From an uncultured Actinomycetes bacterium (GTDB taxonomy: Bacteria; Actinomycetota; UBA4738; JBBDTT01), in NCBI GenBank assembly GCA_963742735.1, contig CAVUMN010000003.1:898623-962622 (forward strand): a DNA stretch of 64,000 bases, written 5' to 3'. The translations under genes and the position numbers were made by a program. Below are positions 17,448 through 33,753 of the stretch, piece after piece. The notes beneath the pieces are model-generated. The model had not been told where the DNA came from. It saw only the letters and a list, made by a program, of their open reading frames with translations, and did no database searches. Positions within the stretch are counted from its first letter, which is position 1; each line of letters starts with the position of its first letter.

Positions 17448-18158
17448 ATGTCGCCTCACCCCGTCCGTCCGGCGTTCCCGGGCCGTCGTCGTCGCCGTCG
17501 CTCTCGGGCTCGTGCTGCTGATCACCGTGGTCCCGGCCGGCGCCCACGTCACCGAGGACTTCAACCCCCTATGGCAGCAGCACATCCTGCCGAAGCTCCA
17601 GCCGGCCGGAACGATCAACCAGAGTGGCAACCCGGTGCACTGGACGAAGCTCAAGGGTGTGCCGGCGAGCCTGGCCGACGGGGCCGACTACCCGAGCCTG
17701 CTCGGCATGGGGCTCGAGAAGTCGGCCTTCGGCCACGGGCTCAAGCTCGACTTCGAAGAGATCTCCCGGAACACGGGCCCGGCGGTGTTCGCGGGATTCA
17801 GGGATGACACGGGCGAGCTCTGCACCGCCACCATGTGCACCGAGGGCTACATGAACGTGCCCCCCGGCACGTACGCGATCTTCACGAAGATCGAGCTCCA
17901 CGGGAGCATCTTCGAGGACCCGACTCTGGACGCGGACTGTGAGCTCGACGTCGGGAACCGGGAGATCATCGACACGGCGAGCTTCTTCGGCGACGCGAAC
18001 ACGACCATCCCACTCATGGGCTGCGCGCCTTCGAGTCGCAGGGCTACATCGGCGTCAACTGTCGAGCGGCGGGGGTGGGAACGGGAGAGAACCTCAAGAT
18101 CACCGCGATCAAGCTGGGCGACCTGGCGAACGGGGAGCTGCAGACCTTCGACACCTAG
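17448..18158 (+). CDS. hypothetical secreted protein (two apparent indels)
   Basis: GGGAGG then ATG at 17448. Signal peptide ...LITVVPAGA-H and motif GTINQSGNPVHWTKLKGVPASLADGAD are in a shifted frame. A second shift near 18020 gives ...GLRAFESQGYIGVNC...LKITAIKLGDL...FDT*. Confidence 0.6.
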
Positions 18159-18159
18159 G

Positions 18160-19518
18160 TCACATGTGGGCGATGAGCTGCTCCACGCGCTCGTCGCTCG
18201 AGCGGAAGGGGTCCTTGCACAGAACCGTGCGCTGGGCCTGATCGTTGAGCTTCAGGTGGACCCAGTCCACGGTGTAGTCGCGGCGCTTGGACTTGGCCTG
18301 GCGGATGAACTCGCCCCGCAGGCGGGCTCGCGTGGTCTGGGGTGGCTCGCGCATGGCCTTCGTGACGGCCTTGTCGGTGACAACGCGGTCCATCTTCCCG
18401 CGCCGCTCCATCAGGTAGTACAGGCCGCGGTTGCGGTTCACGTCGTGGTACGCCAGGTCGACGAGCGTGACCCGCGGGTGCGAGAGCGGCAGGGAGTGCT
18501 TCTCGCGATACGCCTCGATCAGCAGGTACTTCGCGACCCAGTCGACCTTGCGGGCCAGCCGCTCGGGCTTGGAGTCCGACAGCGCGTCCAGCGCGCCGGT
18601 CCACTCCTCCAGGATCTTGGTCTGGAACTCGTCGGCGCCGCGCCGCTCGTAGAACCGCCGCGCCCGGTCCAGGTACTCGGTCTGGATCTCGATCGCCGAG
18701 AGCTCCCGGCCCGTGGCCAGGCGGACCTTCTTGCGGCAGGACATGTCGTGGCTGATCTCGCGGATCGCGCGGATCGGGTTCTCCAGGGTGAGGTCGCGCA
18801 TGACCGTGTTCTCCTCGACCATCCGCAGGACCAGGTCGGTCACGCCGACCTTGAGCATGGTCGTGAACTCGCTCATGTTCGAGTCGCCCACGATCACGTG
18901 CAGGCGGCGGAACCGCTCGGCGTCGGCGTGGGGCTCGTCGCGCGTGTTGATGATCGGCCGCGAGCGCGTGGTGGCCGAGGAGACGCCCTCCCAGATGTGC
19001 TCCGCGCGCTGGGACAGGCAGTACTGGGCGCCGCGGGGACCGTGGAGGACCTTCCCGGCGCCGGCGTAGATCTGCCGCGTGACGAAGAACGGGATCAGCA
19101 CGTCGGCCATGCGGGCGAACTCTCCCTGCCGGGCCACCAGGTAGTTCTCGTGGCACCCGTAGGAGTTGCCGGCCGAGTCCGTGTTGTTCTTGAACAGGTA
19201 GACGTCGCCGGAGATGCCCTCCTCGTGCAGCCGGAGCTCGGCCGCGGACAGCAGGGCCTCGAGGATCCGCTCTCCCGCCTTGTCGTGGGCGACGAGCTCG
19301 GTCACCGCGTCGCACTCCGGCGTCGCGTACTCGGGATGGGAACCGACGTCCAGATACAGCCGGGCGCCGTTCTCCAGGAAGACGTTCGACGAGCGCCCCC
19401 AGTGGACGACCCGGCGGAACAGGTAGCGGGCGACCTCGTCGGGCGACAGGCGGCGCTGCCCGCGGAACGTGCACGTGACCCCGTACTCGTTCTCCAGCCC
19501 GAAGATTCGCCGTTCCAC
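18160..19518 (-). CDS. pafA: Pup--protein ligase
   Basis: [94 protein letters not shown]. Confidence 0.97.
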
Positions 19519-19553
19519 GGGACCAGTGTAGGTGTCGCGGGTGACGGGACTGC

Positions 19554-20825
19554 TCAGACCCCGCAGCCCTTCTCGTTCAGCACGAGGGTGACGGTCATCC
19601 CGGCGCGGTCCAGGTCCAGGCAGTGGGTCCCGGCGACGCGGCGGTCGCCCTCCATGCGCACGGGTCCGAAGTGATCGCCGAACCAGCCCAGCACCGCCGC
19701 GTCGAACTCGCCGGCGTCGGTCGCGGTGTCCCACCGGCTGGCCAGGGCCACATTGAGGCCGTGGTCGTCGGCCCATGCCGTGTACACCGCGCCGTCCCAT
19801 CCGTCGACCGCCTCCGCGCCGCCGCCCAGTCCGGGCAGCAGCGCGCCGGCCCCGCCCGAGAGCCACGCCCGCAGAAAGAGCTCGCCGAGCTGGCCCGAGA
19901 CCACGCGAGTCGCCCCCTCCGACAGCGCCGGCGGCGGCTCGAGATCCTCACCGATCTCCCCGGCCAGGTACTTGTCCGGGTGCAGCACCTGCTCAGTGGT
20001 CACGGGCGGGTCCGCGTAGGCGTCGTTCACCGCGTCCCAGCCGCCCTCGTCGTACAGGATCTGCACGAAGGCCAGCCCGTCGACGTAGGGGGCGATCTGG
20101 ATCTCGGTGATGACCGGCGACAACCCCGGTCCGGTGGCCGTGGCCCCGACCGCATCGGGGATGCTCTCCAGGGCCGCGCTGAACTGGTCGCCGAAGGAAA
20201 GGTGCTCGGCGCTCCACCGCTGCATCATCAGCGTGGCGTCACCCTCGACCAGTCCCAGCCGGGCGCTGAGCTCGTCCGAGGGCTCGTCCCCGGAGACGAC
20301 AGCGTCCAGGTCGAAGTGCTGATCGGTGATCCCGTGGGTGAGCTCGTGGACCAGCGTCATCTTGGCGAGCGGCGTGAGATCGGCCCCGGCCCGCGACTCG
20401 ATGACCAGCCGCCCCGTCGCGGGGTCGTAGAAGCCGATCACCGCCGCCGCGCTCGACTCCTCCAGCTCCTCGCGCAGGTCGGTGCCCTCGGCCAGGATGT
20501 CCAACGCCATCAGCAGCGTCTCGTCGGGCAGCCCGGTTGACTCCGTCTTCTGGGCCTCCTCGCGGACGGCCGCCGCCAGCTCCGCGTCCGAGAGGTACTC
20601 CGGCTCGATGGGGTCCAGGATCGGCAGCTCTCGCAGGAGCGCCGTCTGCCGGAAGATGTCGTCCAGGCCGGTGCCCTCGGGCGCCGAGCGGTCCCGGCTC
20701 TTCGAGCCCACCAGGAACAGGCCGGCGATGACCAGGACGGCCACGGTGAGGGCCAGGACGGTCCGTCCGCGATGCGAAGGCCTGCCCGTCGCCTCGGCGG
20801 CGGGCGGGGGGCTCGGCGCCTCCAC
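19554..20825 (-). CDS. membrane-anchored putative zinc metallopeptidase
   Basis: N-terminal TM ([18 protein letters not shown]); GFYDP....[44 protein letters not shown]. Confidence 0.75.
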
Positions 20826-20827
20826 GC

Positions 20828-21517
20828 TCAGGCCGACGCGGGAGCCAGCTGGGCGATCTCCTCGTCCGAGAGCCTGCGGAACTTCCGGCGGGCGCGGGTG
20901 CGGTCCAGGACGGCGGCCTCCAAATGCTCCGGCTCCACGGTGCGCTCCTCGACCGTGGACAGCGCCTCGACCCCGAGCCGGAGACCGTCCGCCAGGGACA
21001 GGTCGGCGGCGTATCGGTCCTTCAGGAACGTGGTGAGCTCCTCGGTCCGGCCGCCCATGGCCACGAAGCCGGTCTCGTCGCCCACCGAGCCGTCGAACAG
21101 GATGTGGAACAGCTCGTTCGCCTCGGAGGTCTCCCCCACCTCGGCGACCAGGATCTCCACCTCGTACGGCTTCATCTGCTGCGTGAAGATCGCCGACAGT
21201 GCCTGGGAGTAGGCGTTCGCGAGGGTCTTGGCGGTGACGTCCTCGCGGCCGTAGGAGTAGCCGCGCACGTCGGCCAGCTGGATGCCGGCGATGCGCAGGC
21301 TGTCGAACTCGCTGTACTTGCCGACGCCGGCGAAGGCCAGCCGGTCGTAGAGCTCGCTGATCTTGTGCAGCGTCGCGCTGGGGTTCTCGGCGATGAACAG
21401 GATCCCGTCGGCGTACTCCATCGCCAGGACCGACTTGCCGCGCGAGATGCCCTTGCGGGCGTACTCGGAGCGATCCTTCATGAGCTGCTCGGGCGGGACG
21501 TACGGCTGGAACGACAT
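20828..21517 (-). CDS. prcA: 20S proteasome subunit alpha
   Basis: YVPPEQLMKDRSEYARKGISRGKS, ENPS.TLHKISELYDR, KPYEVEI.VAEVG, LEAAVLDR.R.RRKFRR. Confidence 0.97.
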   Translation of the reverse strand: MSFQPYVPPEQLMKDRSEYARKGISRGKSVLAMEYADGILFIAENPSATLHKISELYDRLAFAGVGKYSEFDSLRIAGIQLADVRGYSYGREDVTAKTLANAYSQALSAIFTQQMKPYEVEILVAEVGETSEANELFHILFDGSVGDETGFVAMGGRTEELTTFLKDRYAADLSLADGLRLGVEALSTVEERTVEPEHLEAAVLDRTRARRKFRRLSDEEIAQLAPASA

Positions 21518-22329
21518 CAGTCCCGGGCTCCCTGCTCCGCGCGGTCGGCCACGATGGCGTCGAAGGCCGCCCGCATGTCCTCCTTGGCGATGTCGGTGAC
21601 ACCCTCGGCGGTCACCGTCACGATCTTCGGGAAGATGTCGCGGATCGGATCCGGCCCTCCTGTCGCGACGTCCTCCTGCGATGCGTCGTACAGCGCCTCG
21701 ACCGCGACGCGAACCGCGTCGCCGGACGTCATCGAGGGACGCCACCGCTTCTTCATGGTCGACTTCGCGTGCTGTCCGCCCGAGCCCGTGGCGTGGTAGT
21801 CGAACTCTTCCCACCGGCCACCGGTGACGTCGTAGCGAAACAGGCGGCCCGTCGCGCGCCGCACGTCGAAGCCCCCGAACAGCGGAACGACCACGAGCCC
21901 CTGCAGCGCGTAGCCGAAGTTCTGCCGGATCATCATGGCCAAACGGTTGGCCTTGCCCTCCAGGGAGAGCCGGTCGCCCTCGACCTTCTCGTAGTGCTCG
22001 AGCTCGGTCTGGAAGAGGCGCACGATCTCGACGGCCTGGCCGGCCGTCCCGGCGATCGCGATCGCGGAATGCTCGTCGGCGGGAAAAACCTTCTCGATGC
22101 GCTCGTCGGCGATCGAGTACCCCTCGGTCGCCCGGCGGTCGCCCGCCATGATGATCCCGTCGGCATACCGCAGCCCGAGGATCGTCGTGGCCTGCGCCGA
22201 CAGCGGTACGCCGGCGTCACCTCCGCCCTGGGGGGCGGGCGGCAGCTGTCCGGCGCCGCGCAGCACGTCGCTGAACGAGGGGTTCGCGCCGAGCGGGAAG
22301 CCGGTCGCGCCCGGAAGATCCAGGGTCAC
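21517..22329 (-). CDS. prcB: 20S proteasome subunit beta
   Basis: Propeptide followed by A/TTIL, MAGDRRAT.G, ELEHYEK.EG..LSLEGKANRL, GSGG, D.ATGGPD. Confidence 0.97.
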   Translation of the reverse strand: MTLDLPGATGFPLGANPSFSDVLRGAGQLPPAPQGGGDAGVPLSAQATTILGLRYADGIIMAGDRRATEGYSIADERIEKVFPADEHSAIAIAGTAGQAVEIVRLFQTELEHYEKVEGDRLSLEGKANRLAMMIRQNFGYALQGLVVVPLFGGFDVRRATGRLFRYDVTGGRWEEFDYHATGSGGQHAKSTMKKRWRPSMTSGDAVRVAVEALYDASQEDVATGGPDPIRDIFPKIVTVTAEGVTDIAKEDMRAAFDAIVADRAEQGARD

Positions 22330-22523
22330 TCCCCGCCCTTCTGGACGTAGGACTTCACGAACTCCTCGGCGTTCTCCTCGAGGACCGAGTCGATCTCGTC
22401 GAGGATGTCGTCCATCTCGCCCTTGAGCTTCTCGCCCTTGGCGGTGGTCTCGACCTCTCCGGCGTCGGCGTCGCCGCCGTCGCCCTTCTTCTGCGGGCGC
22501 TTCTGCTCCTGCTCCTGGGGCAA
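22326..22523 (-). CDS. pup: prokaryotic ubiquitin-like protein Pup (C-terminal GGE)
   Basis: GAGGAGG then TTG start; ...DDILDEIDSVLEENAEEFVKSYVQKGGE*. Confidence 0.95.
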   Translation of the reverse strand: MPQEQEQKRPQKKGDGGDADAGEVETTAKGEKLKGEMDDILDEIDSVLEENAEEFVKSYVQKGGE

Positions 22524-22588
22524 GACATGCCTCCTCGCGCTCGGGGACTCGAACAGGAGGATACCGCCGCGGGCGAGTTGGGAGGGGC

Positions 22589-24073
22589 TCAGCCCTGCAG
22601 GGCGTCGACCAGGCTCGCGGCGTCCTCGCTGGCCTCGAGGAGCGCCTCGACGTGCTCGCGGGTGCCCCTCAGGGGCTCGCGCATCGGCACGCGCTGGAGG
22701 GTGTCGCGGCCGGTGTCGAAGATGATCGAGTCCCAGCTGGCCGCGACGATCGAGTCCGGGTAGCGGCGGATGCACTCCCCGCGGAAGTACGCGCGGGTGT
22801 CCTCGGGCGGCGTGCTCACGGCGGCGTCGACCTCGGCGTCGGCCACGAGACGCTCGATCTGGCCGGTCTTCACCAGGCGGTAGTACAGGCCCTTGTCGCG
22901 GCGCACGTCGTGGTACTGCAGGTCGATCAGGCGGAGCTTGGGGTCGTCCCACTTCAGCCCGTCCCGTTCGCGGAACGACTGGATCAGCCGGTGCTTCGCC
23001 ACCCAGTCGAGCTCGCGATGCAGCGACAGCGGGTCCTCCTCGAGCGCGGACAGGATCGCCTCCCACCGGGACAGGACCTCGCCGTTCTCGGGCGTCGGGT
23101 CGGACTCCTTCACGTAGGCCTTCGCGGCGTCCAGGTACTCCCACTGCAGCTCGATCGCCGTCAGCCGCCGGCCGTCCCGAAGGACGACGGCTGCCCGGCA
23201 CGACGGATCCCACGAGATCTGGTGTAGCGCCGCGACGGGGTTCTCCAGGGCCAGATCGGGGACCGCGTCGTCCTCGATCATCTTCAGGACGATCGCCGTG
23301 GTCCCGACCTTCAGGTACGTCGAGACCTCCGAGAGGTTGGCGTCGCCGGGGATGCAGTGCAGCCGCCGGTACTTCTCGGGGTCGGCGTGCGGCTCGTCGC
23401 GGGTGTTGATGATCGGGCGCTTCAACGTGGTCTCCAGGCCGACCTCGGCCTCGAAGAAGTCCGTTCGCTGGGAGATCTGGTACGGAACCCCCTCGCCGTC
23501 GGAGCGCGATCCCTCCGTCCCCACCTTGCCGGCGCCGGTGAACACCTGGCGGGAGACGAAGAAGGGCGTGAGCCCGGACACGATGCGACCGAACGGGATC
23601 GTCCGGTCGACCAGATAGTTCTCGTGGGTGCCGTACGAGTTGCCCTTGCCGTCGGTGTTGTTCTTGTAGATGGCCAGGCGCGCGCCGGGAGGCAGGTACT
23701 CCTGGACCTGGCGCAGGGACTCCTCGAGGATCCGTTCTCCGGCCTTGTCCCAGATCACCAGCTCGCGCGGCGAGGCGCACTCGGGCGTGGAGTACTCCGG
23801 GTGAGCGTGGTCCACGTAGTACCGCGCGCCGTTGGGAAGGATGACGTTGGCGAGCCCGAGATCCTCCTCCACGGGCTGGCGCTCCTGGACCGGCTCGAAC
23901 CCGCGGGCATCGCGCAGCGGCGACTCCTGCTCGTAGTCCCACCGGATCCGCCGCAGGTAGCCGGCGTAGGTGTTGATCAGCAGGCTCGAGGACAGCACGG
24001 GGTTGAAGTCGCCGGCGCCCGGCGCGGAGATGCCGAACTCCGTCTCGATGCCCATCACCTTGGGAATCGCCAC
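22589..24073 (-). CDS. dop: depupylase/deamidase Dop
   Basis: [77 protein letters not shown]. Confidence 0.97.
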   Translation of the reverse strand: MAIPKVMGIETEFGISAPGAGDFNPVLSSSLLINTYAGYLRRIRWDYEQESPLRDARGFEPVQERQPVEEDLGLANVILPNGARYYVDHAHPEYSTPECASPRELVIWDKAGERILEESLRQVQEYLPPGARLAIYKNNTDGKGNSYGTHENYLVDRTIPFGRIVSGLTPFFVSRQVFTGAGKVGTEGSRSDGEGVPYQISQRTDFFEAEVGLETTLKRPIINTRDEPHADPEKYRRLHCIPGDANLSEVSTYLKVGTTAIVLKMIEDDAVPDLALENPVAALHQISWDPSCRAAVVLRDGRRLTAIELQWEYLDAAKAYVKESDPTPENGEVLSRWEAILSALEEDPLSLHRELDWVAKHRLIQSFRERDGLKWDDPKLRLIDLQYHDVRRDKGLYYRLVKTGQIERLVADAEVDAAVSTPPEDTRAYFRGECIRRYPDSIVAASWDSIIFDTGRDTLQRVPMREPLRGTREHVEALLEASEDAASLVDALQG

Positions 24074-24101
24074 GGGTTGAGCCTACCGCGAGGGCCAGGC
24101 G

Positions 24102-24305
24102 TCAAGAAGCCCCGTCGAGCGGGAGGGCGATGGCGCCCGCACCGCGCGAGGGGATGGGACGTCGAGGCTCACGCACTCCGGCCGACCCATCCGGGCCCGA
24201 GGAGCCGGGAGGCACCGCAAGCCAGACCCGACGCCTGCCGAAGGGGCGAAGCAGCGTCCTGAAGAGCCACTTCGGCCTCCGCCAGTGCAGGACGTAGCGA
24301 ACCAC
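24102..24305 (-). CDS. small hypothetical protein with GVREPRRP motif
   Basis: 67-aa ORF starting 3 nt after the arc stop and filling the arc-dop gap. C-terminus is AGVREPRRPIPSRGAGAIALP. Confidence 0.55.
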   Translation of the reverse strand: MVRYVLHWRRPKWLFRTLLRPFGRRRVWLAVPPGSSGPDGSAGVREPRRPIPSRGAGAIALPLDGAS

Positions 24306-24308
24306 GAG

Positions 24309-26069
24309 CTACAGGTACTGGCCGGCGCTGACCCGTTCGACCTGGCGGCCCTCGCCGCGGCGGTCGCCGAGCAGCGTGCGGACGTACACGATCCGCTCGC
24401 CCTTCTTGCCGGAGATCCGCGCCCAGTCGTCGGGGTTCGTCGTGTTGGGGAGGTCCTCGTTCTCCTTGAACTCGTCGCGGATCGCCTGGATCAGGTCGGC
24501 GAGCTTCAGGCCCTTCTCCCCGGACTTCAGGAAGCGCTTGATGGCCTCCTTCTTGGCGCGGGCCACGATGTTCTCGATCATCGCGCCGGAGTTGAAGTCC
24601 TTGAAGAACAGGATCTCCTTGTCCCCCGAGGCGTAGGTGACCTCCAGGAACTTGTTCTCCTCGGTGTCGGCGTACATCGTGCGGGTCGTGTCGCGGATCA
24701 TGCGCTCGACCGTCTTCGGGACGTCGCCGCCGGACACCGCGAGCTCGTCCGGGTGGATGGGCAGCGCGTCGGTCAGGTACTTCGACATGATGTCGCGGGC
24801 GGCGTCCTCGTCGGGGCGCTCGATCTTGATCTTCACGTCGAGCCGGCCCGGCCGCAGGATCGCCGGGTCGATCAGGTCCTCGCGGTTCGACGCGCCGATC
24901 ACGATGACGTTCTTCAGGGTCTCGACGCCGTCGATCTCCGAGAGCATCTGCGGCACGATCGTGTTCTCCACGTCACTGGAGATCCCCGAGCCGCGCATCC
25001 GGAAGATCGAGTCCATCTCGTCGAAGAACACGATGACCGGGAAGCCCTCCTCGGATTTCTCCTTCGCGCGCTGGAAGATCAGACGGATCTGGCGCTCGGT
25101 CTCACCGACGTACTTGTTCAGGAGCTCGGGCCCCTTGACGTTCAGGAAGTAGGAGTGCGCGTCCGCGCGGCCGGTCTTCTTGGCCACCTGCTCGGCCAGG
25201 GAGTGGGCGACCGCCTTCGCGATGAGGGTCTTGCCGCATCCCGGAGGCCCGTACAGCAGCACGCCCTTGGGCGGCTTCAGCTGGTGCTCCAGGAACAGCT
25301 CCGCGTACAGGAACGGGAGCTCGATGGCGTCCTTGATGTCCTCGATCTGCCCGGCCAGTCCGCCGATGTCCTCGTAGGCGATGTCCGGGACCTCCTCCAG
25401 GACGAGCTCCTCGACCTGCTCCTTGGGCAGGCGCTCGAGCATGTAGCCCGAGCGGCGGTCGAACAGGACCGCGTCGCCGGCGCGCAGGACCGGCTCGAGC
25501 TTCAGCTCGGCGGAGATCAGCCCCACCATCTCCTCGTCGCCGCGGCCGACCAGGATCGCGCGCTCTCCCTCGAGCATCTCCTTGATCGTCACGACCTCGC
25601 CCTGCACGTCCTGGTCCAGGATCTCCACGATGTTGAGGGCCTCGTTCAGGACCACCTCGGCGCCCTTGCGGAACCGCTCGAGCTCGACGGAGGGGTCGAC
25701 GTTCACGCGCATCTTGCGGCCCGAGGTGAACACGTCGACGGAGCCGTCGTCGTTGGTCCGGAGGTAGACGCCGAAGGACGCCGGCGGCCGGGTGAGCTTG
25801 TCGACCTCCTCCTTCAGCGCCTCGATCTTCTCGCGCTCGGCCGTAAGGACGCCGACGAGCTTCTCGTTCTGGGAGATCGCGCGGGAGAGCTCGCCCTTGG
25901 CCTCCAGGAGGCGCTCCTCGAGGATCTTGACCTGGCGGGGCGACTGGTGGAGGCGGCGGCGAAGGAGGGCCGTCTCGTCCTCGAGGAACTTGATCTGGGT
26001 GGAGAGCTCGTGGATCTCTTTCTCGTAGCGCTCGAGACGCTCCTGTGGATCCACGTTCTCGTAGGCCAT
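24309..26069 (-). CDS. arc: proteasome ATPase ARC/Mpa
   Basis: N-terminal coiled coil, [55 protein letters not shown]-terminal GQYL. Confidence 0.97.
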
Positions 26070-26163
26070 CCGCCGACGCCCTCCTCTCGGCGAGCCAGTA
26101 TATCCCCGGCGCCCGGAGCCTCCGGGAAGCCGACTCGCCTCTTACCGGATATACGCCGGGGAC

Positions 26164-26985
26164 TCAGTCCCCGGTTGGCTCATCGTCCACATTCGGCACG
26201 TTCATCCCCAAACCTGAGCGGGCGATCGTGATGAATCCGGTATGGCCGACCATCCGGTGATCCGGGCGGACACTGCGCGGGGCCACGTGCCAGGTCCGGT
26301 GCATCACCTCGAACGTCTCCACGTGTCCGTAGCGGTGCTGGTTGAGCGCGCCGACGAGCTCCTGGACCTGGTTGGTGGTCGGCAGGTACGCGCACAGGAT
26401 CCCGCCCGGGGGCAGCGTCTCGCCGGCCGTGGCCAGGACTCCCGCCGGCTCGGGAAGGTCGAGCAGCACGCGGTCGAACGTCTCACCCGTCGCCGCCGCC
26501 TCGCGGACGTCTCCCCGGCGCAGCTCGACCCATGGCGGGACCTTGCCGAAGAACGTCTCCAGGTTCTCCCGCGCCGTCTGGTGGAAGTCGTCGCGGAGCT
26601 CGTAGGACACCACGGCCCCGTCGGGCCCGGTGGCGCGGGCCAGGGCCATGGTCAACGCGCCCGACCCCGTCCCGGCCTCCAGGATCCGGGTGCCGGGAGC
26701 GACGTCCGCCCACATCAGCATCGCCCCGAGGTCCTTCGGGTAGATGACCTGCGCCCCGCGGGGCATCTTCAGGACGAAGTCGGCCAGGCGCGGCCGCAGG
26801 ACGACCAGGCCGGCGCCGGTCGTCGAGTGCACCAGGCTCCCCTCGTCGGAGCCGATCACCAGGTCGTGGGGCACGACGCCGGCGTGGTAGTGGAACGACC
26901 CCCCCGCCACCAGCCGGATCAGGTACCGGCGGCCGCGCGAGTCGAGCAGGATCACCCGCTCCCCGGGCTCCAGGGGACCACTCAC
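26164..26985 (-). CDS. trmI: tRNA (adenine58-N1)-methyltransferase
   Basis: MPRGAQVIYPKD, LEAGTGSGALT, SYE.R.DF, LDLPEP, SVRPDHRMVGHTGF. Usual position upstream of arc. Confidence 0.93.
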   Translation of the reverse strand: MSGPLEPGERVILLDSRGRRYLIRLVAGGSFHYHAGVVPHDLVIGSDEGSLVHSTTGAGLVVLRPRLADFVLKMPRGAQVIYPKDLGAMLMWADVAPGTRILEAGTGSGALTMALARATGPDGAVVSYELRDDFHQTARENLETFFGKVPPWVELRRGDVREAAATGETFDRVLLDLPEPAGVLATAGETLPPGGILCAYLPTTNQVQELVGALNQHRYGHVETFEVMHRTWHVAPRSVRPDHRMVGHTGFITIARSGLGMNVPNVDDEPTGD

Positions 26986-27956
26986 GTCTGATAGATCTCC
27001 GCGGGGAGGACCTCCTCCGACAGGCCGGCGGACACCTCGGCGTCGGTCGGCGCGGCCAGCCGCTCTCCAAGGATCCGGGCCCGGGAACGGCAGAACGCGC
27101 AGTAGGTGCCCGGCGTCGGCTGGCCACAGCGCTCGCACGGAGAGAGGTCCACGGGTGCGTCGGGCTGGAACTTCGCTGCGATCTGGTCGAGGAACCCCAG
27201 GAAGAACTGGCCCTTCGTTCCCGGTGACGCCGACTCCAGTTGGTTCAGCGCTTCCTTGTACCGAAGCTGGGTGTTGCCCGCCACGAGCGGGCACTCCTCC
27301 ACCACGTAGTCGAGGTCGCGCAGGAAGGCGTACGCGGCCGTCTCCAGCTCCGACAGCCGGTGCAGCGGTTTGATCTTCTTGACCATGCCCTCGCGCGCCG
27401 GCAGGGCCGGCGACTGGCGCCCGATGTACTCGGTCTGCCATCGCAGCGTGTTGCCCAGCAGCGCGGCGGCTTCGTCGTCCAGGTTGTGGCCGGTGGCTAC
27501 CACGTCGAAGCCGTGGTCCAGCGCCACACGGTTGAAGACGTACCGCTTCGAGAGCCCGCACGTGGCACAGGTCGAGCGGCCGCCACGCCGCCCGGCCGTG
27601 GGGATGTCGTAGCCGTAGGTCTCGCGCAGGTCGACGTGGATGAGCTCGGCCCCCCGGGCCTCGGCGAACGCCCGCGCGACCTCGCCGGATCGCTCCGAGT
27701 ACTCACCGATGCCCAGGCCCAGGTACATCCCGCTCGCGTGGTATCCCAGGTCGAGCAGGACGTCCCACAGCGCCAGGGAGTCCTTGCCGCCGGACACCGC
27801 GACCAGGACCCGGTCGTCGTCGCCGAGCATGTCGTAGGACTCGATCGCCCGGCGGACCTGCTGCCGAACGTGGCGGACGAAGTGGTCGCTGCAGAACGCG
27901 GAGTGATGGCGGCGGACTTCGATGACCGCCGGATCCCCGCACTGGCGGCACTTCAC
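26982..27956 (-). CDS. ttuA: tRNA 2-thiolation enzyme TtuA (TIGR00269/Ncs6-like)
   Basis: N-terminal Zn finger CRQC...CSDH, PP-loop SGGKDS, CATC, GHNLDDE, EECPL, and C-terminal CERC...CAFC. Confidence 0.88.
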   Translation of the reverse strand: MKCRQCGDPAVIEVRRHHSAFCSDHFVRHVRQQVRRAIESYDMLGDDDRVLVAVSGGKDSLALWDVLLDLGYHASGMYLGLGIGEYSERSGEVARAFAEARGAELIHVDLRETYGYDIPTAGRRGGRSTCATCGLSKRYVFNRVALDHGFDVVATGHNLDDEAAALLGNTLRWQTEYIGRQSPALPAREGMVKKIKPLHRLSELETAAYAFLRDLDYVVEECPLVAGNTQLRYKEALNQLESASPGTKGQFFLGFLDQIAAKFQPDAPVDLSPCERCGQPTPGTYCAFCRSRARILGERLAAPTDAEVSAGLSEEVLPAEIYQT

Positions 27957-28231
27957 GAGCGGGATCCCTTTGCCGCGGGGGGTTCGCCCGCTGTCGTGAA
28001 GGGACTCCGCAGCACTCGGGCGCGGGCTACCCCCCCGCACCCCCCGGAGATCACGGGCCGGATCTCGACCTCGTCGGCGTCCTCGACCCGGTCCTCCCGC
28101 GTGATCAGGGTCCTATCGCGGATCACCAGGACCGTGTCCGGGTTGACGCCCAGCTCCGCGAGCAGCTGTTTCACCCGCTTGGGGCCCGTGACCTCGACCT
28201 CACGCTCCGGATTGCGAAGACGGACCTTCAT
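27953..28231 (-). CDS. ttuB: MoaD/ThiS/TtuB-type ubiquitin-like sulfur carrier with 28-aa C-terminal extension
   Basis: MKVRLRNPEREVEV.GP..V..LL.ELG.NPDTVLVIR...L.T.D...D.D.VEIRPVISGG followed by CGGVAR...SRS*. Its stop overlaps the ttuA start. Confidence 0.82.
   Translation of the reverse strand: MKVRLRNPEREVEVTGPKRVKQLLAELGVNPDTVLVIRDRTLITREDRVEDADEVEIRPVISGGCGGVARARVLRSPFTTAGEPPAAKGSRS
27975..28038. repeat. 17-bp imperfect inverted repeat (hairpin) within the ttuB tail
   Basis: Arms GCGGGGGGTTCGCCCGC (27975-27991) and GCGGGCTACCCCCCCGC (28022-28038) are 15/17 complementary, with a 30-nt loop. Confidence 0.75.
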
Positions 28232-28964
28232 CCGGCCTCAACGTTACCCCTGCGGAGCCTCCCAGCGCCGACCGGCCGGACGCGCGGGCGGCGCCGTCCA
28301 GGAACAGGGCCACGAAGCCGAACCACAGGCCGAACACGTCGCCGTTGATCACGCGAACCGCCCCCCACACGAGCAGCCCCAGCGCCGCGAGCCTGCCCCC
28401 GGCCACGGCGATGCGCGTGGACCGCGCGTGGTTGCCGGTGAGCCCCCAGATCCCCGAGCGCAGCAGCCGTCCGCCGTCCAGGGGGAGCCCCGGCACCAGG
28501 TTGAACAGCGCGAGGACGCCGTTGACCCCCGCCAGCGAGATCCCCACGCCCTCGAGGGGGACCCAGCCGAGGCGCGACCCAAGCGCGGAGATCAGCGCGA
28601 ACAGGCCGCCGAGCAGCACCGAGACCATCGGCCCGACCAGGGCGATCGCGAACTCGTCGCGGGCCACCCGGACCTCGTGGGAGATCTCCGAGACCCCGCC
28701 GAACAGGAACAGCGTGATCCCCCGCACCGGGATCCCCAGCCGCCGCGCCAGGACGGCGTGCCCGAGCTCGTGGGCGACCAGCGAGACGCAGAACAGCAGC
28801 GTGGTGGCGATCGCCATCGTCGCGACCAGCAGGGGACCCTCGTACGGATAGGCCTCGCCGAAGTTGGCGTTCGTCGCCACCCCGACCAGCACGATGATGA
28901 CGAACCAGGACGGGTCCACCCGGACGCGGATGCCGAAGGGGCGTCCGACCCCGATGGGCCTCAT
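28200..28964 (-). CDS. site-2 protease (M50) family protein
   Basis: HELGH, ITLFLFGGVS, EFAIALVGP, FNLVPGLPLDGGR; multiple TM segments and no CBS domains. Confidence 0.9.
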   Translation of the reverse strand: MRPIGVGRPFGIRVRVDPSWFVIIVLVGVATNANFGEAYPYEGPLLVATMAIATTLLFCVSLVAHELGHAVLARRLGIPVRGITLFLFGGVSEISHEVRVARDEFAIALVGPMVSVLLGGLFALISALGSRLGWVPLEGVGISLAGVNGVLALFNLVPGLPLDGGRLLRSGIWGLTGNHARSTRIAVAGGRLAALGLLVWGAVRVINGDVFGLWFGFVALFLDGAARASGRSALGGSAGVTLRPDEGPSSQSGA

Positions 28965-28973
28965 GGCACGACC

Positions 28974-30071
28974 TTACGGGAGCGGGCGCACGCCGAGCGT
29001 GGCCGAAACCGTTCGCCGGGAGCCGTCGGAGGCGACGAGCTCCACCTCCACCTCCTCGCCCGGCTCGTGGCGGCCGATGGCCGTGCCCAGGTCTTCGGAG
29101 CTCGTCACCGGGTCCCCGCCCAGGGCGACGATGACCTCGCCCTCCTGGATCCCGGCCTCGGCCGCCCCGGTATCGGGGCCAACCCCCACCACGTACGCGC
29201 CCTCGTCCACGGCCAGGCCCAGCTGGGCCGACAGGGCCGGCGTCACGGTCTGGGTCGAGACGCCCAGGTAGGGGACCGCGCCGGAGGGGTTCTCGATGGC
29301 CTCGTCGATCAGCGGCCGCGCCTGGTCGATGGCGATCGCGAAGCCGATGTTCTCCGCGTCGGACGCGCCGGCGGTGTTGATCCCGACGACCTCGCCCTGC
29401 AGGTTCAGGAGCGGGCCGCCGGAGTTCCCCGGGTTGATGGCCGCGTCCGTCTGGATCACGCCGGTGTAGGTCCGTCCCCCGCCCGGGGCGTTCGGGTCCG
29501 CGGCCTGCACCGTCCGGTCCAGAGCGCTGACGATGCCCGACGTGACGCTCGGCCCCCCGCCCTCGAAGTCGGCGCCGAGCCCCAGAGCGTAGCCGATCGC
29601 CAGGACCCGCTCGCCCAGCCGGAGCTCCGAGGAGTCGCCCAGCGTCACGGGACGAAGATCGGTCGTCTCCACCTTCAGCACCGCCAGGTCCCGGTCGGGG
29701 TCGCCCCCGATCACGCGGGCCTCGAGCCGCCGCGGTTCGGGCGGCGCGGTCACCACCGTCAGGCGCGAGGCGGCCTCGACGACGTGGTAGTTGGTCACGA
29801 CGATCCCGGCCGCGCGCACCACGAACCCGGTGCCCACGGCTTGGTCGGTGCCGTTCAGGGACGCGGCCAGCACGCTGACCACGCTGGGCTCGACCCGCGC
29901 CACGACCTGCACGAGCCGGTCGTCGCCGGAGGCCGGCGGCAGGGGCGGCAGCGGCGAGACGCCCTCGGTCGGCGACAGGCGCACGTCGATCCGGGCGGGC
30001 CCACACGCCCCCAGCACCAGCGCGACCACGGCCGCGGCGGCCGCCCGCCGGGTCATGGATCCGTTCGTCAT
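28974..30071 (-). CDS. HtrA/DegP-like serine protease with PDZ domain, probable lipoprotein
   Basis: Lipobox LGAC, GTGF, VTNYHVV, DLAVLKV, IQTDAAINPGNSGGPL, C-terminal PDZ. Start uncertain (30056-30080). Confidence 0.9.
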   Translation of the reverse strand: MTNGSMTRRAAAAAVVALVLGACGPARIDVRLSPTEGVSPLPPLPPASGDDRLVQVVARVEPSVVSVLAASLNGTDQAVGTGFVVRAAGIVVTNYHVVEAASRLTVVTAPPEPRRLEARVIGGDPDRDLAVLKVETTDLRPVTLGDSSELRLGERVLAIGYALGLGADFEGGGPSVTSGIVSALDRTVQAADPNAPGGGRTYTGVIQTDAAINPGNSGGPLLNLQGEVVGINTAGASDAENIGFAIAIDQARPLIDEAIENPSGAVPYLGVSTQTVTPALSAQLGLAVDEGAYVVGVGPDTGAAEAGIQEGEVIVALGGDPVTSSEDLGTAIGRHEPGEEVEVELVASDGSRRTVSATLGVRPLP

Positions 30072-30106
30072 GACCCCCATACGTATCATGCGAGACTGAG
30101 AATCGA

Positions 30107-30712
30107 GTGACGATGATCGCCAAGGGAACCCTGTCGCTGAAGGAATGGGCCGTCGTCTGCGAGGCGCTCGCGGACGGCGACCAGGTGATGCTGCTGCGCA
30201 AGGGCGGCCTGGGCGAGAAGCGGGGGTTCGAGTTGGCGGGAACCGAGTTCCTGCTGTTTCCCTCCTTCGAGCACCAGCACGGCGCCAAGGTGCGCCCGGA
30301 GCACCGGCGGCACTTCGACGCGGCGGCGTGCTCGCGGCCCCCCGAGGGCCGGCTGCACGTCGGCCTGCTGGCCCGGGTGGCCGGGGCGGTGGCCCTCGCC
30401 GAGCCCGGCGAACCCGCCGACGCCGCGGGCCTGTACGCCGGCACCGAAGATCTGCACGTCTACACGCCCGAGCTCGTCGCCGAACGGGTCGCCTACCGCC
30501 CGCAGGCCCCGCTGGTCGGCGTGGTGCTCGACGTCCGGCCGCTCCGGGCGCGGCTCGACCTGGTCGACGAGCGACGGTACGCGGGATGCCGGTCTTGGGT
30601 CGATCTCCCCCGGGTGCGCTTCGAGGCCGGAGTGCCCGTCGTGCCGCCGGCGCGACTCCAGACGGCCCTCGAGCGCCTGCGGGCGATCGCCCCCGCGCCG
30701 GTGGCGTCGTGA
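30107..30712 (+). CDS. DUF1802 family protein
   Basis: LKEWAVVCEAL..G.Q.MLLRKGG..E, FLLFPSFEHQ, YAGCRSWVDL. Confidence 0.85.
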   Translation: MTMIAKGTLSLKEWAVVCEALADGDQVMLLRKGGLGEKRGFELAGTEFLLFPSFEHQHGAKVRPEHRRHFDAAACSRPPEGRLHVGLLARVAGAVALAEPGEPADAAGLYAGTEDLHVYTPELVAERVAYRPQAPLVGVVLDVRPLRARLDLVDERRYAGCRSWVDLPRVRFEAGVPVVPPARLQTALERLRAIAPAPVAS

Positions 30713-30993
30713 GCCGCCGGCTGATCGCCCTGCTCCTGGTCCTGGTCATGGGGACGGCGACGGGCCTGTACGTGCTCCGCGAGGGCGAGATCCGCGAGGA
30801 GCTCCGCGACGGCGACGCGGCGTACGACCAGCTGTGCTCGAACCTGCAGGCCTCGGCGCTCGAGACCGGGAGCCCCGGCACGATCGCGCACCTGATCGAC
30901 GCGTTTCGGATCGAGCTCCGGTCGCTGCGCGAGAGCTACCCACGCTGGTACGAGCAGTACGAGAGCGACCCCTCCGCCTACAACTGCGTCTAG
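30709..30993 (+). CDS. small hypothetical membrane-anchored protein
   Basis: GTGA overlap with the DUF1802 stop; N-terminal TM LIALLLVLVMGTATGLYVL; two Cys residues. Confidence 0.6.
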   Translation: MSRRLIALLLVLVMGTATGLYVLREGEIREELRDGDAAYDQLCSNLQASALETGSPGTIAHLIDAFRIELRSLRESYPRWYEQYESDPSAYNCV

Positions 30994-30996
30994 CGG

Positions 30997-33753
30997 CTAG
31001 AAGCTGCCGAGCTGCACGACCTGCTGGAAGGTCGGGCGGTTGATCCAGTGGATCGCCGGCACGCCCGTGACCCCCACCGCCGAGTGACGGACCTCGTCGT
31101 CAGCGACGGTGCGGATCCAGTCGGCGACGTCGGCCGAGCCGAACTCGGCCTCCAGCGCCGCGGCCGCGTCCGCGAGCGACCGCCACAGAAGGGCCCGGCA
31201 GCTCGTGCGGTTCCCGCCTCCGCAGTAGGTCCGGGACCACCGTGAGCGCACCGGTCCTCCCAGAACCTGGCGGAGATCCTTCTGCACCTGTCCGTAGAAC
31301 GAGCCGTTGAACGCCGAGCCGACGTGAAGCTGTGGCGCGTCGTGGAGCCCGATCCCCAGGTTGTCGATCGCATCGCCGCTGCGGGGATCGAAGATCGCGT
31401 GGGCGAGCAACGGCCACCACGCGTCCATGATCGCCGGGGCGACCCCATCGTCGTACGCGCCGTCGTGGTCGCGGTCCCGCCGGTGGGCGGCCGGCCCCTG
31501 CCACGCGGCCAGGCGGGTGCGCATCGTCCTCGTGCGCGGGTCCACGCCGGCCGGGGCCGAGGTGCCCATCACCCGCAGGATCGCCGGCAGGACGTCCTCG
31601 CCGCGGATGTCGACGGTCCCGGCGTCCTCCATCGCGTCGACCAGGTCGGCGCGGTCGATCTTGCCGCGCCGGATGGCCGCCCGGATCCGGTGGTCCAGGG
31701 AGAGTGAGCGGTACACGGGCCCCTTCGAATAGTCGCCGTCGTTCGCCATGAACCCTGGGGCCTGCTTGTTGTTCCAGGACGAGAGGAACCCGGCGGGCGG
31801 GTTGAGGTCCCACGGCTGGGCCCGAAGGGGAAGGAATCCGCGCCAGTCCCACCTTCCGGTCCCCCACGCCGGCAGGTACGGGTCGACGCCGCGGGCGCGG
31901 ATCGGGCACTTGCACGAGTGCTGGTAGCCGATGTCCGTGTCGTCGACGTAGAACCAGTTGAACGTGTAGTCGACGCCGGCGCCCATGGCCCTACGGAACG
32001 ACCGGAAGCCGCCGCGCATGTAGTCCGGGTTGTTGAGGTTCTGGAAGCCCCGGGCCGAGGCCAGCTCGGCGCGGTAGGTGCTACGCAGGCTGGCGACGGC
32101 GATCGGCGTTCCGTCCACCAGGGTCCCCCGGGCGAGGATCGGGCCGTAGTGCTCGGTCCGCTCGACCCGCCACGACAGCAGCACGTCCGGCCCCTCCGGG
32201 ACGCCGCCCGCCGTGGGCTTCGCGACCTGGGTGTGCTGGTGGACGTCGATGGGATGGCACCGTCCGTCGTGCACGTAGCCCTCGGACTCGGTCGTGGCCT
32301 CGCCGCCCCCGGGATCGCAGATCTTGAGCACCCACTGGTCGACGTTGTCGCCGCCGGCCGAGGTGGCCGAGAACGCGTAGTCGCGCCCACGCCCGAGCTG
32401 CACGTAGATGTCGGTGCCGGCGAACGCCACGCCGCGGGCGTCGATGCCGGGCCCGTGGACGTCCTTCTCCACGAGCAGCTGGGGAATGAAGTAGCCGGTC
32501 TGGGGACCGAACACCGCGATCGGGTGGTTCGCCTTGGTGTGCTTCGCCGCGACCAGCAGCGCGTTGCTCATGCCGGTCGAGAACGACAGCGGGATCTTGC
32601 CCCACGGCGCGTCGACCGTCCGCACGCGGGGCGCCGGCGGAATGGGGAGGGCGCCGACGGCGGCGCCGGCCACGCCCACCACGTCGGGTGCGCCGTCGCC
32701 GATCGGCTGGAGGGTCGCGCAGTCGATGTCGGGGTGGGCGGCCGGGTTCACCGGGCCGAGGTTCGTGTTGTACGGGGCCCGCCGGTGCGAGCTCGTGGGC
32801 GCCTCCAGGTCGTTGGCGAAGTGCAGGTCGTCGAACACGCGCCGGGCCGCCGTCGCGCTCCCCAGCTTCTTCGTCATGGCCTTCAGGCCGCACAGGTTGC
32901 CGACCTCGCCGCCGCCGCCCTTGCCGAAGATCCCGCCGACCAGCGACGCGGTGGCCACGACGTCCTCGGGCTTCCACTGGGCCGGCAGCTGTTGGAGGGC
33001 GGCGTACTCGCCGGGAAGCTTCAACGGGTTCGCCAGCGCCTCGCCGATGTACTCGTTGACGCCGTCCACGTAGGCGTTGACGTCGCCGATCCCGACCGGG
33101 CCCTCGGGCGTCACGTTCGCCGCGGCGCGGAGCTGTTCGGTGAGCTCGGCCTCGGTGTAGGGAGCCACGGCGAGCTGGTCGCGGTCCATGTGCATGTTCG
33201 CCGGCGATGCGCCCAGGAACTCGCTGAGCCGGGCCCGGCCCAGATGACGAAGGACGTCCATCAGGAACAGGCGGTCCTCGGCGCCGGTGTAGCCCTGGGC
33301 GAACATGGTGGCGTAGCGGGTCTGCCCGTAGATGTGCGGCACGCCGAAGGTCCGGTCGCGGACCACCGTCACGTCGTCGGTGGGCCGGTAGATCCGGCCG
33401 ACGTCCTCGGGCTTCACGCCGAACGAGGCGTCCTTGTAGAAGTCGAGCAGTTCGGACTCCTCGAGCCCCGGGGTGTTGTAGACGAGGTCCCCGTACATCG
33501 CCAGCTGGTCGCCCACGTGCGCCGGCAGGGTCGCCGCGGCCTGCCCGAGGATCGTCTCCGCACCGTTCAGGACCCCGTCCTGGCCGGGCGGCACGATGTT
33601 CAGGAATCCGCCGGGGTCGCCGAAGCCGCGGTAGCCACCGGGATTGCCCTGGGCGAGCCCGGGCTCACCCGGGACGGCGAGGGTCGCGGCGACGATCAAG
33701 AGGGCCAGGGCGAGGCCGGCGCGGCGTGCAGGCACGGTGGGCACGTGATCCAT
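30997..33753 (-). CDS. penicillin acylase (Ntn-hydrolase, peptidase S45) family protein, secreted
   Basis: Signal peptide; RD..GVPHIYG, AEDRLF.MD..R, beta-chain start SNALLV, FGPQ.GYF.PQ, WNNKQAPG, WINRPTFQQVV. Confidence 0.9.
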   Translation of the reverse strand: MDHVPTVPARRAGLALALLIVAATLAVPGEPGLAQGNPGGYRGFGDPGGFLNIVPPGQDGVLNGAETILGQAAATLPAHVGDQLAMYGDLVYNTPGLEESELLDFYKDASFGVKPEDVGRIYRPTDDVTVVRDRTFGVPHIYGQTRYATMFAQGYTGAEDRLFLMDVLRHLGRARLSEFLGASPANMHMDRDQLAVAPYTEAELTEQLRAAANVTPEGPVGIGDVNAYVDGVNEYIGEALANPLKLPGEYAALQQLPAQWKPEDVVATASLVGGIFGKGGGGEVGNLCGLKAMTKKLGSATAARRVFDDLHFANDLEAPTSSHRRAPYNTNLGPVNPAAHPDIDCATLQPIGDGAPDVVGVAGAAVGALPIPPAPRVRTVDAPWGKIPLSFSTGMSNALLVAAKHTKANHPIAVFGPQTGYFIPQLLVEKDVHGPGIDARGVAFAGTDIYVQLGRGRDYAFSATSAGGDNVDQWVLKICDPGGGEATTESEGYVHDGRCHPIDVHQHTQVAKPTAGGVPEGPDVLLSWRVERTEHYGPILARGTLVDGTPIAVASLRSTYRAELASARGFQNLNNPDYMRGGFRSFRRAMGAGVDYTFNWFYVDDTDIGYQHSCKCPIRARGVDPYLPAWGTGRWDWRGFLPLRAQPWDLNPPAGFLSSWNNKQAPGFMANDGDYSKGPVYRSLSLDHRIRAAIRRGKIDRADLVDAMEDAGTVDIRGEDVLPAILRVMGTSAPAGVDPRTRTMRTRLAAWQGPAAHRRDRDHDGAYDDGVAPAIMDAWWPLLAHAIFDPRSGDAIDNLGIGLHDAPQLHVGSAFNGSFYGQVQKDLRQVLGGPVRSRWSRTYCGGGNRTSCRALLWRSLADAAAALEAEFGSADVADWIRTVADDEVRHSAVGVTGVPAIHWINRPTFQQVVQLGSF

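Follow-up and report, generated by a model that had tools for sequence, protein, structure and literature searches.

The gene set ttuB-ttuA-trmI lies directly upstream of the Pup-proteasome genes of an uncultured Actinomycetes bacterium (assembly GCA_963742735.1). It was analysed within a 64,000-nucleotide stretch of contig CAVUMN010000003.1 (positions 898,623 to 962,622), referred to here as the window. The three genes encode TtuB, a beta-grasp sulfur carrier of the ubiquitin-like (Ubl) type; TtuA, a PP-loop enzyme predicted to thiolate uridine 54 of tRNA; and TrmI, which methylates adenine 58. The window genes (71 % G+C) were placed by frame analysis of the G+C content at third codon positions (GC3) and named with Pfam and NCBIfam models. 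All 13 genes from htrA to pafA are on the minus strand, in the order that had been described by a model from the letters and open reading frames (ORFs) of the stretch (the sequence-only reading). The GTGA start/stop overlaps described there are present in the DNA as well: the TGA stop of ttuB overlaps the GTG start of ttuA, and the GTG start of trmI overlaps the stop of ttuA.

We propose, with a probability of about 0.72, that ttuB-ttuA-trmI is a co-translated module acting on the tRNA T-loop, which would introduce 1-methyladenosine at position 58 (m1A58) and 2-thiouridine at position 54 (s2U54), and in which TtuB is made in a pro-form and matured, likely by a JAMM peptidase. The system is the known TtuA/TtuB pair in a new, widespread form: it occurs phylum-wide in Actinomycetota, and its carrier is a pro-protein or is fused to the enzyme that it serves.

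A conserved ttuB-ttuA-trmI unit in Actinomycetota

Conservation was surveyed in 40 relatives of the same order (41 genomes with the source) and in an even sample of 400 Actinomycetota genomes plus the source genome. A full TtuA orthologue (E <1e-140) was found in 18 of the 40 relatives, and one more carries a fragment at a contig end. Across the phylum, TtuA matches with E values of at most 1e-30 came from 134 of 401 genomes, of which about 118 are at orthologue level; the remaining 16 hold only a distant TtuA-like group of 31–37 % identity, which was left out of the counts. This group (17 rows, families f31 and f23, for example G369) is possibly NcsA-like or another PP-loop thiolase; in the one locus of the group that was fetched, L137, neither ttuB nor trmI stands alongside. 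Several large families gave no TtuA match (0/31, 0/28 and 0/13 genomes). The named holders are unclassified Actinomycetota metagenome-assembled genomes (MAGs), Acidimicrobiia, with 41 of the 80 retained loci, and Nitriliruptoria, with three. Their labels include Ilumatobacteraceae, Microthrixaceae and soil MAGs, and cover soil, marine and sludge Actinomycetota.

To describe gene order, 119 places were fetched and searched with the window proteins by tblastn. One locus at a contig end (L037) and the distant paralogue L137 were dropped, which left 117. Seven unpublished genomes were omitted from the fetched loci, the unpublished genome G006 (locus L022) was included, and the order and phylum tallies include unpublished genomes; none of the conclusions hinges on these. 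The gene ttuB lies directly upstream of ttuA in 117/117 loci, and trmI directly downstream of ttuA in 107 of the 110 loci whose contig extends for at least another 900 nt, being non-adjacent in the other three. With at least 7 kb more contig as the base, arc follows on the same strand within 7.5 kb in 78 of 84 loci and comes immediately after trmI in 59 of them; in six loci it was not found within 7 kb. The placement of ttuB-ttuA-trmI upstream of arc-dop-pup-prcBA, which the sequence-only reading had singled out and on whose linkage to arc it had leaned, is conserved across the phylum.

Within this arrangement, the conserved unit is ttuB-ttuA-trmI, and it is with trmI that it comes to lie beside the proteasome genes. 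In five of five TtuA-less relatives of the same order, the row htrA-trmI-arc-dop-pup-prcB-prcA(-pafA) is intact and the cassette is cleanly absent (one of these loci is cut within arc). Because these relatives keep the trmI-arc row, and because trmI adjoins ttuA far more regularly than arc adjoins trmI, we conclude that the cassette tracks trmI and not the proteasome. The unit also stays intact where an htrA-like insert between trmI and arc has loosened the link to arc. Among five TtuA-less genomes from other families, four (families f19, f20, f21 and f10) gave no arc match at E 1e-80, and the fifth, G049, carries trmI-arc-dop. From these sequences, TtuA may be confined to arc-bearing lineages.

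The surroundings of the unit vary. Upstream of ttuB, 109 loci had enough DNA for a scan; by the criteria used, a same-strand ORF was found in 73 of them and none in 36. The neighbour was HtrA in 27, an M50 protease in 22, a GH65 glycosidase in 10, a member of other families in 9 and a protein of no family in 5. The GH65 glycoside hydrolase/phosphorylase (~800 aa) stands upstream of an in-frame TtuB-TtuA fusion in ten loci, which belong to one group of families. In a further ten, an htrA-like gene lies between trmI and arc and not upstream of ttuB. In locus L128 (G075), trmI is followed by pup and pafA, and arc, dop and the proteasome genes were not found within 8 kb downstream. The HExxH protein that follows prcA in the window was seen by tblastn in a minority of the phylum loci (uncounted). 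Three proteases do flank the system in the window, as the sequence-only reading had pointed out, but across the phylum they are variable context and stand outside the conserved unit.

It is possible, although clearly less probable than not, that what keeps the T-loop module and the Pup-proteasome genes together is co-expression under a single stress (heat or oxidative), with nothing passed physically from one system to the other; such shared regulation would be compatible with a T-loop module. The order from htrA to pafA is unchanged over ~12 kb, the linkage is kept across many families, and the level of 5-methyl-2-thiouridine at position 54 (m5s2U54) climbs with temperature in Thermus, as reported in PMC6418473. 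A scan of positions 17800–31200 found no terminator-like site on the minus (coding) strand, but this is a weak consensus test. The scan detected nothing promoter-like, and its six terminator-like sites all lie on the non-coding strand; for an actinobacterial genome the outcome is uninformative. Shared regulation is further set back by a trmI-arc gap that varies, with foreign genes inserted there in some lineages, and the locus was found in no RNA run.

Precursor forms of TtuB and their proposed maturation

The TtuB core comprises residues 1–64 (28040–28231) and ends in ...EIRPVISGG; its ThiS match (Table 1) stands against a Pfam cut-off of 22.5 bits. It most resembles Thermus TtuB (E 1.5e-11) and aligns with 5ZTB_E and 5GHA_E, chains that end in ISGG. 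The aligned Gly-Gly is the chain end in four solved homologues (5ZTB_E, 5LDA_B, 1RWS_A and 1RYJ_A). The sequence-only reading had described a beta-grasp protein with ISGG; the motif is present, but the ORF continues for 28 residues past it (27956–28039). A TtuB gene product with Gly-Gly at its very C-terminus is not encoded in the window and was found in seven of the 117 loci. Of the others, 68 encode a tailed TtuB and 42 an in-frame TtuB-TtuA fusion. The tails have a median of 2 residues and range from 1 to 83, which puts the 28 residues of the window among the longest, and in 47 of the 68 the stop codon of the tail overlaps an ATG or GTG. In the fusions, linkers of 2–14 residues join the two proteins. 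Single-gene fusion proteins of 386–422 aa from independent pipelines made up 120 of the 120 clusters listed (the best 120), in which they bear generic names, for example 'ATP-binding protein', 'TIGR00269 family' or 'tRNA-5-methyluridine54 2-sulfurtransferase'.

In 41 aligned TtuB sequences, S62, G63 and G64 are invariant and the segment downstream is unconserved. The residue after Gly-Gly is Ala in 65, Ser in 29 and Gly in 6, which accounts for 100 of 110. On a FastTree tree of 118 TtuA sequences, the tailed, fused and GG-stop forms switch at least 16 times, compared with 34–42 times in the ten shuffles listed. This repeated interchange indicates that whatever follows Gly-Gly is discarded. Adenylation of a sulfur carrier needs an exposed terminal glycine, and a tailed or fused TtuB therefore requires cleavage after Gly-Gly. 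TtuB is a precursor and not a ready Gly-Gly protein, a point that the sequence-only reading had missed.

The frequency of fusions (42 of 117 ttuB genes) would also suit a TtuB that is never cleaved and serves TtuA as a structural domain, whether built in or attached, with sulfur delivered from sulfide or persulfide directly at the Fe-S cluster. PMC11323500 reports that Thermus TtuA uses sulfide in vitro and that Ubls are partly dispensable in Thermococcus given elemental sulfur (S0). We consider a permanent domain improbable: it is at odds with the S-G-G that is invariant in every TtuB form, with the unconserved and highly variable length of what follows, with the repeated interchange of forms, and with the presence of an E1-type activating enzyme in the genome.

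The long tail in the window is probably not a homopolymer error. A seven-G run at about 28030 lies just after ISGGC, where one G fewer would give ...ISGGCGG and a stop, and GC3 of the tail codons is ~75 % (hand count) as against 90–95 % in neighbouring genes; an assembly error is nevertheless very unlikely, as a public contig of a ~94 % identical relative runs gapless over 27842–28088 (low depth, 2.55), a second relative has 5 nt in place of 80 nt (low depth, 2), the protein would even then not end at the aligned Gly-Gly, and the GG stop is absent from 110 of the 117 loci as well.

Candidates for the activation and cleavage of TtuB were sought in the source assembly (3.08 Mb, five contigs). 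The sequence-only reading had seen no E1 in the window and had suggested a genome search for ThiF/MoeB and JAMM genes. A genome without any E1 would have counted against that reading, and one is present: the genome's only ThiF match lies on contig C4, together with its only JAMM. The E1 (ThiF family, 282.8 bits) scores 411 bits with MoeB and 348 bits with the SAMP-activating UbaA model of NCBIfam, and has no rhodanese domain. The JAMM matches Prok-JAB (88.6–88.8 bits), no PF01398 JAB match was found in the genome, and its best NCBIfam model is a desampylase (90 bits, cut-off 130). JAMM and E1 are arranged head to tail, and the stop of the JAMM gene touches the start of the E1 gene. The JAMM motif E...HxH...S..D is intact, with E25, H79, H81, S89 and D92 invariant in 23 sequences. 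A JAMM turned up in 40 of the order's 41 genomes, and the one in which it did not is 69 % complete.

The cluster on contig C4 (~1524589–1528152, L002) consists of a selD-like ORF, JAMM, E1, a CysO-like Ubl ending in AVAGG and a cysteine synthase.

The genome holds four ThiS-family genes: ThiS and CysO end with a GG stop, MoaD is fused to MoaE, and TtuB is tailed. The MoaD-MoaE fusion is in frame and encodes 222 aa on contig C5 (L004:1489–2154, plus strand), with ThiS at residues 5–81, MoaE at 90–201 and ...PPVAGG leading into MoaE. Like TtuB, this carrier has to be cut after its Gly-Gly. JAMMs free MoaD from MoaD-MoaE in Deinococcus and release SAMP fusions in Haloferax, according to PMC8832034, and in PMC1779556 Iyer et al. 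proposed such a releasing role for JAB domains wherever ThiS/MoaD is fused.

A predicted complex of the JAMM with TtuB residues 1–78 scored 0.83, a value that may reflect likeness to solved JAMM-Ubl complexes (e.g. 5LDA), and the best of three controls scored 0.00. Of 157 solved complexes, 116 attain the mark for this score, as do 2 of 215 mismatched pairs. Contacts agreed between runs to at least 88 %, and the predicted local distance difference test value of the partner was at least 79. In the model, TtuB 59–67 lies on JAMM residues 25, 27, 29, 79, 81 and 89–92, which include the catalytic residues. The JAMM is the most likely maturase of TtuB and would cut after Gly64.

HtrA and the M50 protease were also considered as general TtuB maturases and rejected. 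HtrA begins with a lipoprotein-type signal (...LVLGAC...), indicating an extracytoplasmic protein; it is kept in TtuA-less relatives; and the upstream neighbour of ttuB varies.

The tRNA target and comparison with known systems

TtuA is collinear with Thermus thermophilus TtuA (5GHA_A, residues 1–291 to 1–291, E 1e-95; NcsA only 1e-27), and the NCBIfam models rank in the order TtuA (274 bits), NcsA (119 bits) and TtcA (85 bits). We aligned 14 diverse orthologues of 44–75 % identity. The PP-loop S55-G56-G57-K58-D59-S60 (SGGKDS) is invariant in 14/14, as are C130, C133 and C222 and the zinc-finger cysteines C3, C6 and C22 and C274, C277, C286 and C289; the Pfam model TtuA_LIM_N matches with 38 bits. 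In Thermus TtuA, the equivalents of C130, C133 and C222 ligate a [4Fe-4S] cluster, as described in PMC7025502.

The TtuA score of 274.4 bits lies below the equivalog cut-off of 450 (NCBIfam NF049949, a Pyrococcus-named model). In our reading of the sequence, this would reflect distance from that model and not exclusion from the TtuA family. The low score could also be taken to mean that the enzyme thiolates another nucleoside, such as U34 like NcsA or C32 like TtcA. This is scarcely probable, since TtuA is by far the nearest match of the sequence, well ahead of NcsA and TtcA, since an MnmA gene elsewhere in the genome already accounts for thiolation of the wobble position (s2U34), and since ttuA is fixed beside the gene of another T-loop enzyme, trmI. 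A TTCRANNC T-loop is present in 48 of the 52 tRNA genes of the genome.

The coupling of TrmI and TtuA at the T-loop, which the sequence-only reading had put forward, fits both the conserved, translationally coupled gene order and the biochemistry of the known enzymes: m1A58 is a positive determinant for thiolation by TtuA (PMC6418473, PMC7912444). The same reading had cited s2T54, 5-methyl-2-thiouridine, as the Thermus product, and for the present lineage the genomes suggest otherwise. Neither TrmFO (TIGR00137) nor a TrmA/RumA-type enzyme (PF05958) was found in any of the 41 genomes of the order, the source included. Methylation and thiolation of U54 are independent of each other in Thermus (PMC6418473), and in Sulfolobus s2U54 is described together with TtuA/TtuB and without TrmA (PMC7912444). 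Because no m5U54 methyltransferase was detected and s2U54 is formed in Sulfolobus without TrmA, the expected product, as predicted by homology, is probably s2U54 rather than m5s2U54.

In the proposed mechanism, A58 would be methylated by TrmI and U54 thiolated by TtuA with sulfur that TtuB brings as a thiocarboxylate at its C-terminal glycine; the probable product is s2U54 rather than m5s2U54. Cleavage of the TtuB precursor after Gly64 would have to precede its adenylation by the MoeB/UbaA-type E1, the only one of the genome. The cut would most likely be made by the single JAMM/MPN+ peptidase encoded beside that E1, and the same JAMM would also process the MoaD-MoaE fusion. We propose that the E1 and JAMM of contig C4, the sole ones in the genome, also act on TtuB, MoaD and ThiS. 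The position beside arc-dop-pup-prcBA would have been inherited with trmI, which does not imply a role for TtuB as a proteasome tag.

Several points weigh against this proposal. We infer both the target position and the product from homology, and the TtuA score stays under its equivalog cut-off. The use of sulfide by Thermus TtuA in vitro in PMC11323500 takes place without TtuB, which makes a carrier-independent route possible. The JAMM also occurs in TtuA-less relatives, so that its presence does not discriminate; the model of its complex, whose score likeness to solved structures may influence, cannot show a preference for TtuB over CysO or MoaD, and we likewise infer the JAMM cut. With the source genome 88.9 % complete, an m5U54 methylase or a second peptidase could have been missed, although the finding of none in 41 genomes of the order argues against a gap hiding such a methylase. 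Finally, a T-loop module leaves the persistent closeness of arc unexplained.

Among the closest known systems is TtuA-TtuB-TtuC(-TtuD) of Thermus thermophilus, which makes m5s2U54 (5GHA, 5ZTB, 5B4E). The two share the PP-loop, Cys130/133/222, the zinc fingers, a carrier with ...ISGG, adjoining ttuB and ttuA genes and an E1 without a rhodanese domain, and the dependence on m1A58 is expected to hold here too. They differ in that the actinobacterial carrier is a precursor or a fusion and does not end in Gly-Gly, that the cassette is fixed to trmI beside Pup-proteasome genes, and that TrmFO is absent, so that the substrate would be U54 rather than m5U54. Moreover, the hosts include soil, marine and sludge Actinomycetota and not only thermophiles.

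Carriers fused through Gly-Gly to the enzyme that they serve are known elsewhere. In Mycobacterium, MoaX is a linear MoaD-MoaE fusion that is cleaved by JAMM. For Deinococcus DR2607/DR0402, and for HvJAMM1 with SAMP1-MoaE, PMC8832034 describes the release of such a carrier by a JAMM. In our case the partner is a tRNA thiolase, and many TtuB proteins have a tail of only 1–3 residues. The archaeal SAMP2-NcsA-UbaA-HvJAMM1 system, which ties sampylation and tRNA thiolation to proteasomes, offers a likeness in parts: the source genome likewise combines a ThiS-type Ubl and a PP-loop thiolase with one E1 and a JAMM. Ubl genes adjoin PP-loop ATPase genes in archaea (PMC2948915). The differences are that the enzyme here is of the TtuA type and that the host is bacterial, with Pup the degradation tag known for it.

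We know of no trmI link or precursor carrier in Sulfolobus acidocaldarius, which also differs in being an archaeon and a hyperthermophile. It shares TtuA/TtuB and the lack of an m5U54 methylase, and s2U has been seen at its position 54 (PMC7912444). The cluster on contig C4 has the layout described for Rubrobacter among the actinobacterial JAMM-E1-CysO-CysM operons (Iyer et al. 2006, type 4c/4d; PMC1779556). That operon explains cysteine synthesis, whereas the source genome has no E1 or JAMM besides those of this cluster. A full-text search, with subscription journals outside it, returned no published account of actinobacterial TtuA/TtuB, of a TtuB-TtuA fusion or of the ttuBA-trmI-arc linkage.

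The 2-thiolation of U54 is treated as a trait of thermophiles in the reviews PMC7912444 and PMC6418473. With the machinery encoded by about 118 of the 401 Actinomycetota sampled, s2U54 is to be expected in many non-thermophiles. The bacterial pro-Ubl would follow the habit of ubiquitin, synthesised in a longer form from which a JAMM-type peptidase releases it, and JAMM, E1 and TtuB-TtuA would make a simple in-vitro system. For the source organism, the DNA runs that contain the stretch are soil-metagenome contigs of 90–95 % identical relatives with small shares, from which we claim no habitat. The IVYWREL fraction of 0.406 corresponds to ~45 °C, but the underlying ORF set was crude and untrimmed and the genome has 71 % G+C, and the value is too rough to tell a thermophile from a mesophile.

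The neighbouring Pup-proteasome genes

The Pup-proteasome set next to the cassette is complete, with pup, dop, pafA, arc, prcB and prcA all recognised by Pfam and NCBIfam. The linkage sharpens the unexplained adjacency of trmI and arc, as a whole T-loop module and not one gene lies beside these genes. The sequence-only reading had suggested that TtuB and Pup might be two tags feeding one 20S proteasome: activated TtuB would also be conjugated to protein lysines, and the conjugates passed to ARC-20S beside Pup. The parts of a sampylation-like system are present, namely an E1 with a UbaA match, a JAMM whose best model is a desampylase, and a TtuB that matches SAMP2, and arc stays within 7.5 kb in most loci. 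K137 of TtuA, a conjugation site in Thermus, is invariant in the 14 orthologues. TtuB is reported to modify TtuA and TtuC in Thermus (PMC11323500).

A dual tag nevertheless appears most improbable. The cassette follows trmI more tightly than arc, htrA or other genes part trmI from arc in several loci, and in L128 no arc was found within 8 kb. The TtuA-less relatives retain the whole trmI-arc-proteasome row, and trmI adjoins arc without TtuA outside the order too (G049). The features of Arc and TtuB that were examined give no pointer to recognition. There is an equally slim chance that JAMM-matured TtuB is not only a sulfur carrier but a second protein modifier on lysines, as in Thermus, with the proximity of arc reflecting either hand-over of its conjugates to ARC-20S or control of the amounts of TtuA and TrmI by the Pup-proteasome. 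The switch in such a scheme would be the controlled freeing of TtuB from its tail or fusion partner. If this were true, two unrelated tags, one of the ubiquitin fold and one disordered, would act on one bacterial proteasome.

Table 1. Genes from htrA to pafA in the window, listed in the direction of reading.
Gene and product	Position	Strand	Assignment and remarks
htrA-like serine protease	28974-30089, or start 30071	-	Trypsin_2 + PDZ; context gene
M50 (site-2-type) membrane metalloprotease	28200-28964	-	Peptidase_M50 61 bits, HELGH; context gene
ttuB, ThiS/SAMP2-type beta-grasp sulfur carrier precursor, 92 aa	27953-28231	-	ThiS 35.8 bits, SAMP2 27 bits
ttuA, predicted [4Fe-4S] PP-loop tRNA U54 2-sulfurtransferase, 324 aa	26982-27956	-	TtuA_LIM_N + ATP_bind_3
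trmI, tRNA (adenine58-N1)-methyltransferase	26164-26985	-	GCD14 102.7 bits, TrmI-like_N 67.7 bits
arc (mpa), proteasomal AAA ATPase	24309-26069	-	AAA + Prot_ATP_ID_OB_N + Prot_ATP_ID_OB_C
small ORF between arc and dop, 67 aa	24102-24305	-	no Pfam or NCBIfam match
dop, depupylase/deamidase	22589-24073	-	Pup_ligase 608 bits; separated from pafA through the paralogue's NCBIfam scores
pup, 66 aa, ends ...QKGGE	22326-22526	-	Pfam Pup 73 bits
prcB, proteasome beta subunit	21517-22329	-	Pfam Proteasome 139 bits
prcA, proteasome alpha subunit	20828-21517	-	Pfam Proteasome 66.7 bits
HExxH (HELTH) protein, N-terminal hydrophobic segment	19554-20837	-	no Pfam match; variable context gene
pafA, Pup ligase	18160-19518	-	NCBIfam TIGR03686 720.5 bits, cut-off 551

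Some details of this row (Table 1) concern the context genes. The 3' end of the M50 gene overlaps the start of ttuB by 32 nt. The small ORF between arc and dop has high GC3 and the same frame as dop, and gave a tblastn match in 1 of 19 same-order loci; it could be a small gene of low conservation or not a gene at all. The HExxH protein matches the NCBIfam Hvo_1808 family with 132.8 bits, under the cut-off of 200 (a partial match). Pup ends in GGE and not GGQ, and deamidation would therefore not be needed; dop nonetheless adjoins pup. Upstream of htrA and divergent from it lies a DUF1802 gene (30107–30712, plus strand), and members of the same family stand on the opposite strand upstream of ttuB or M50 in several of the phylum loci.

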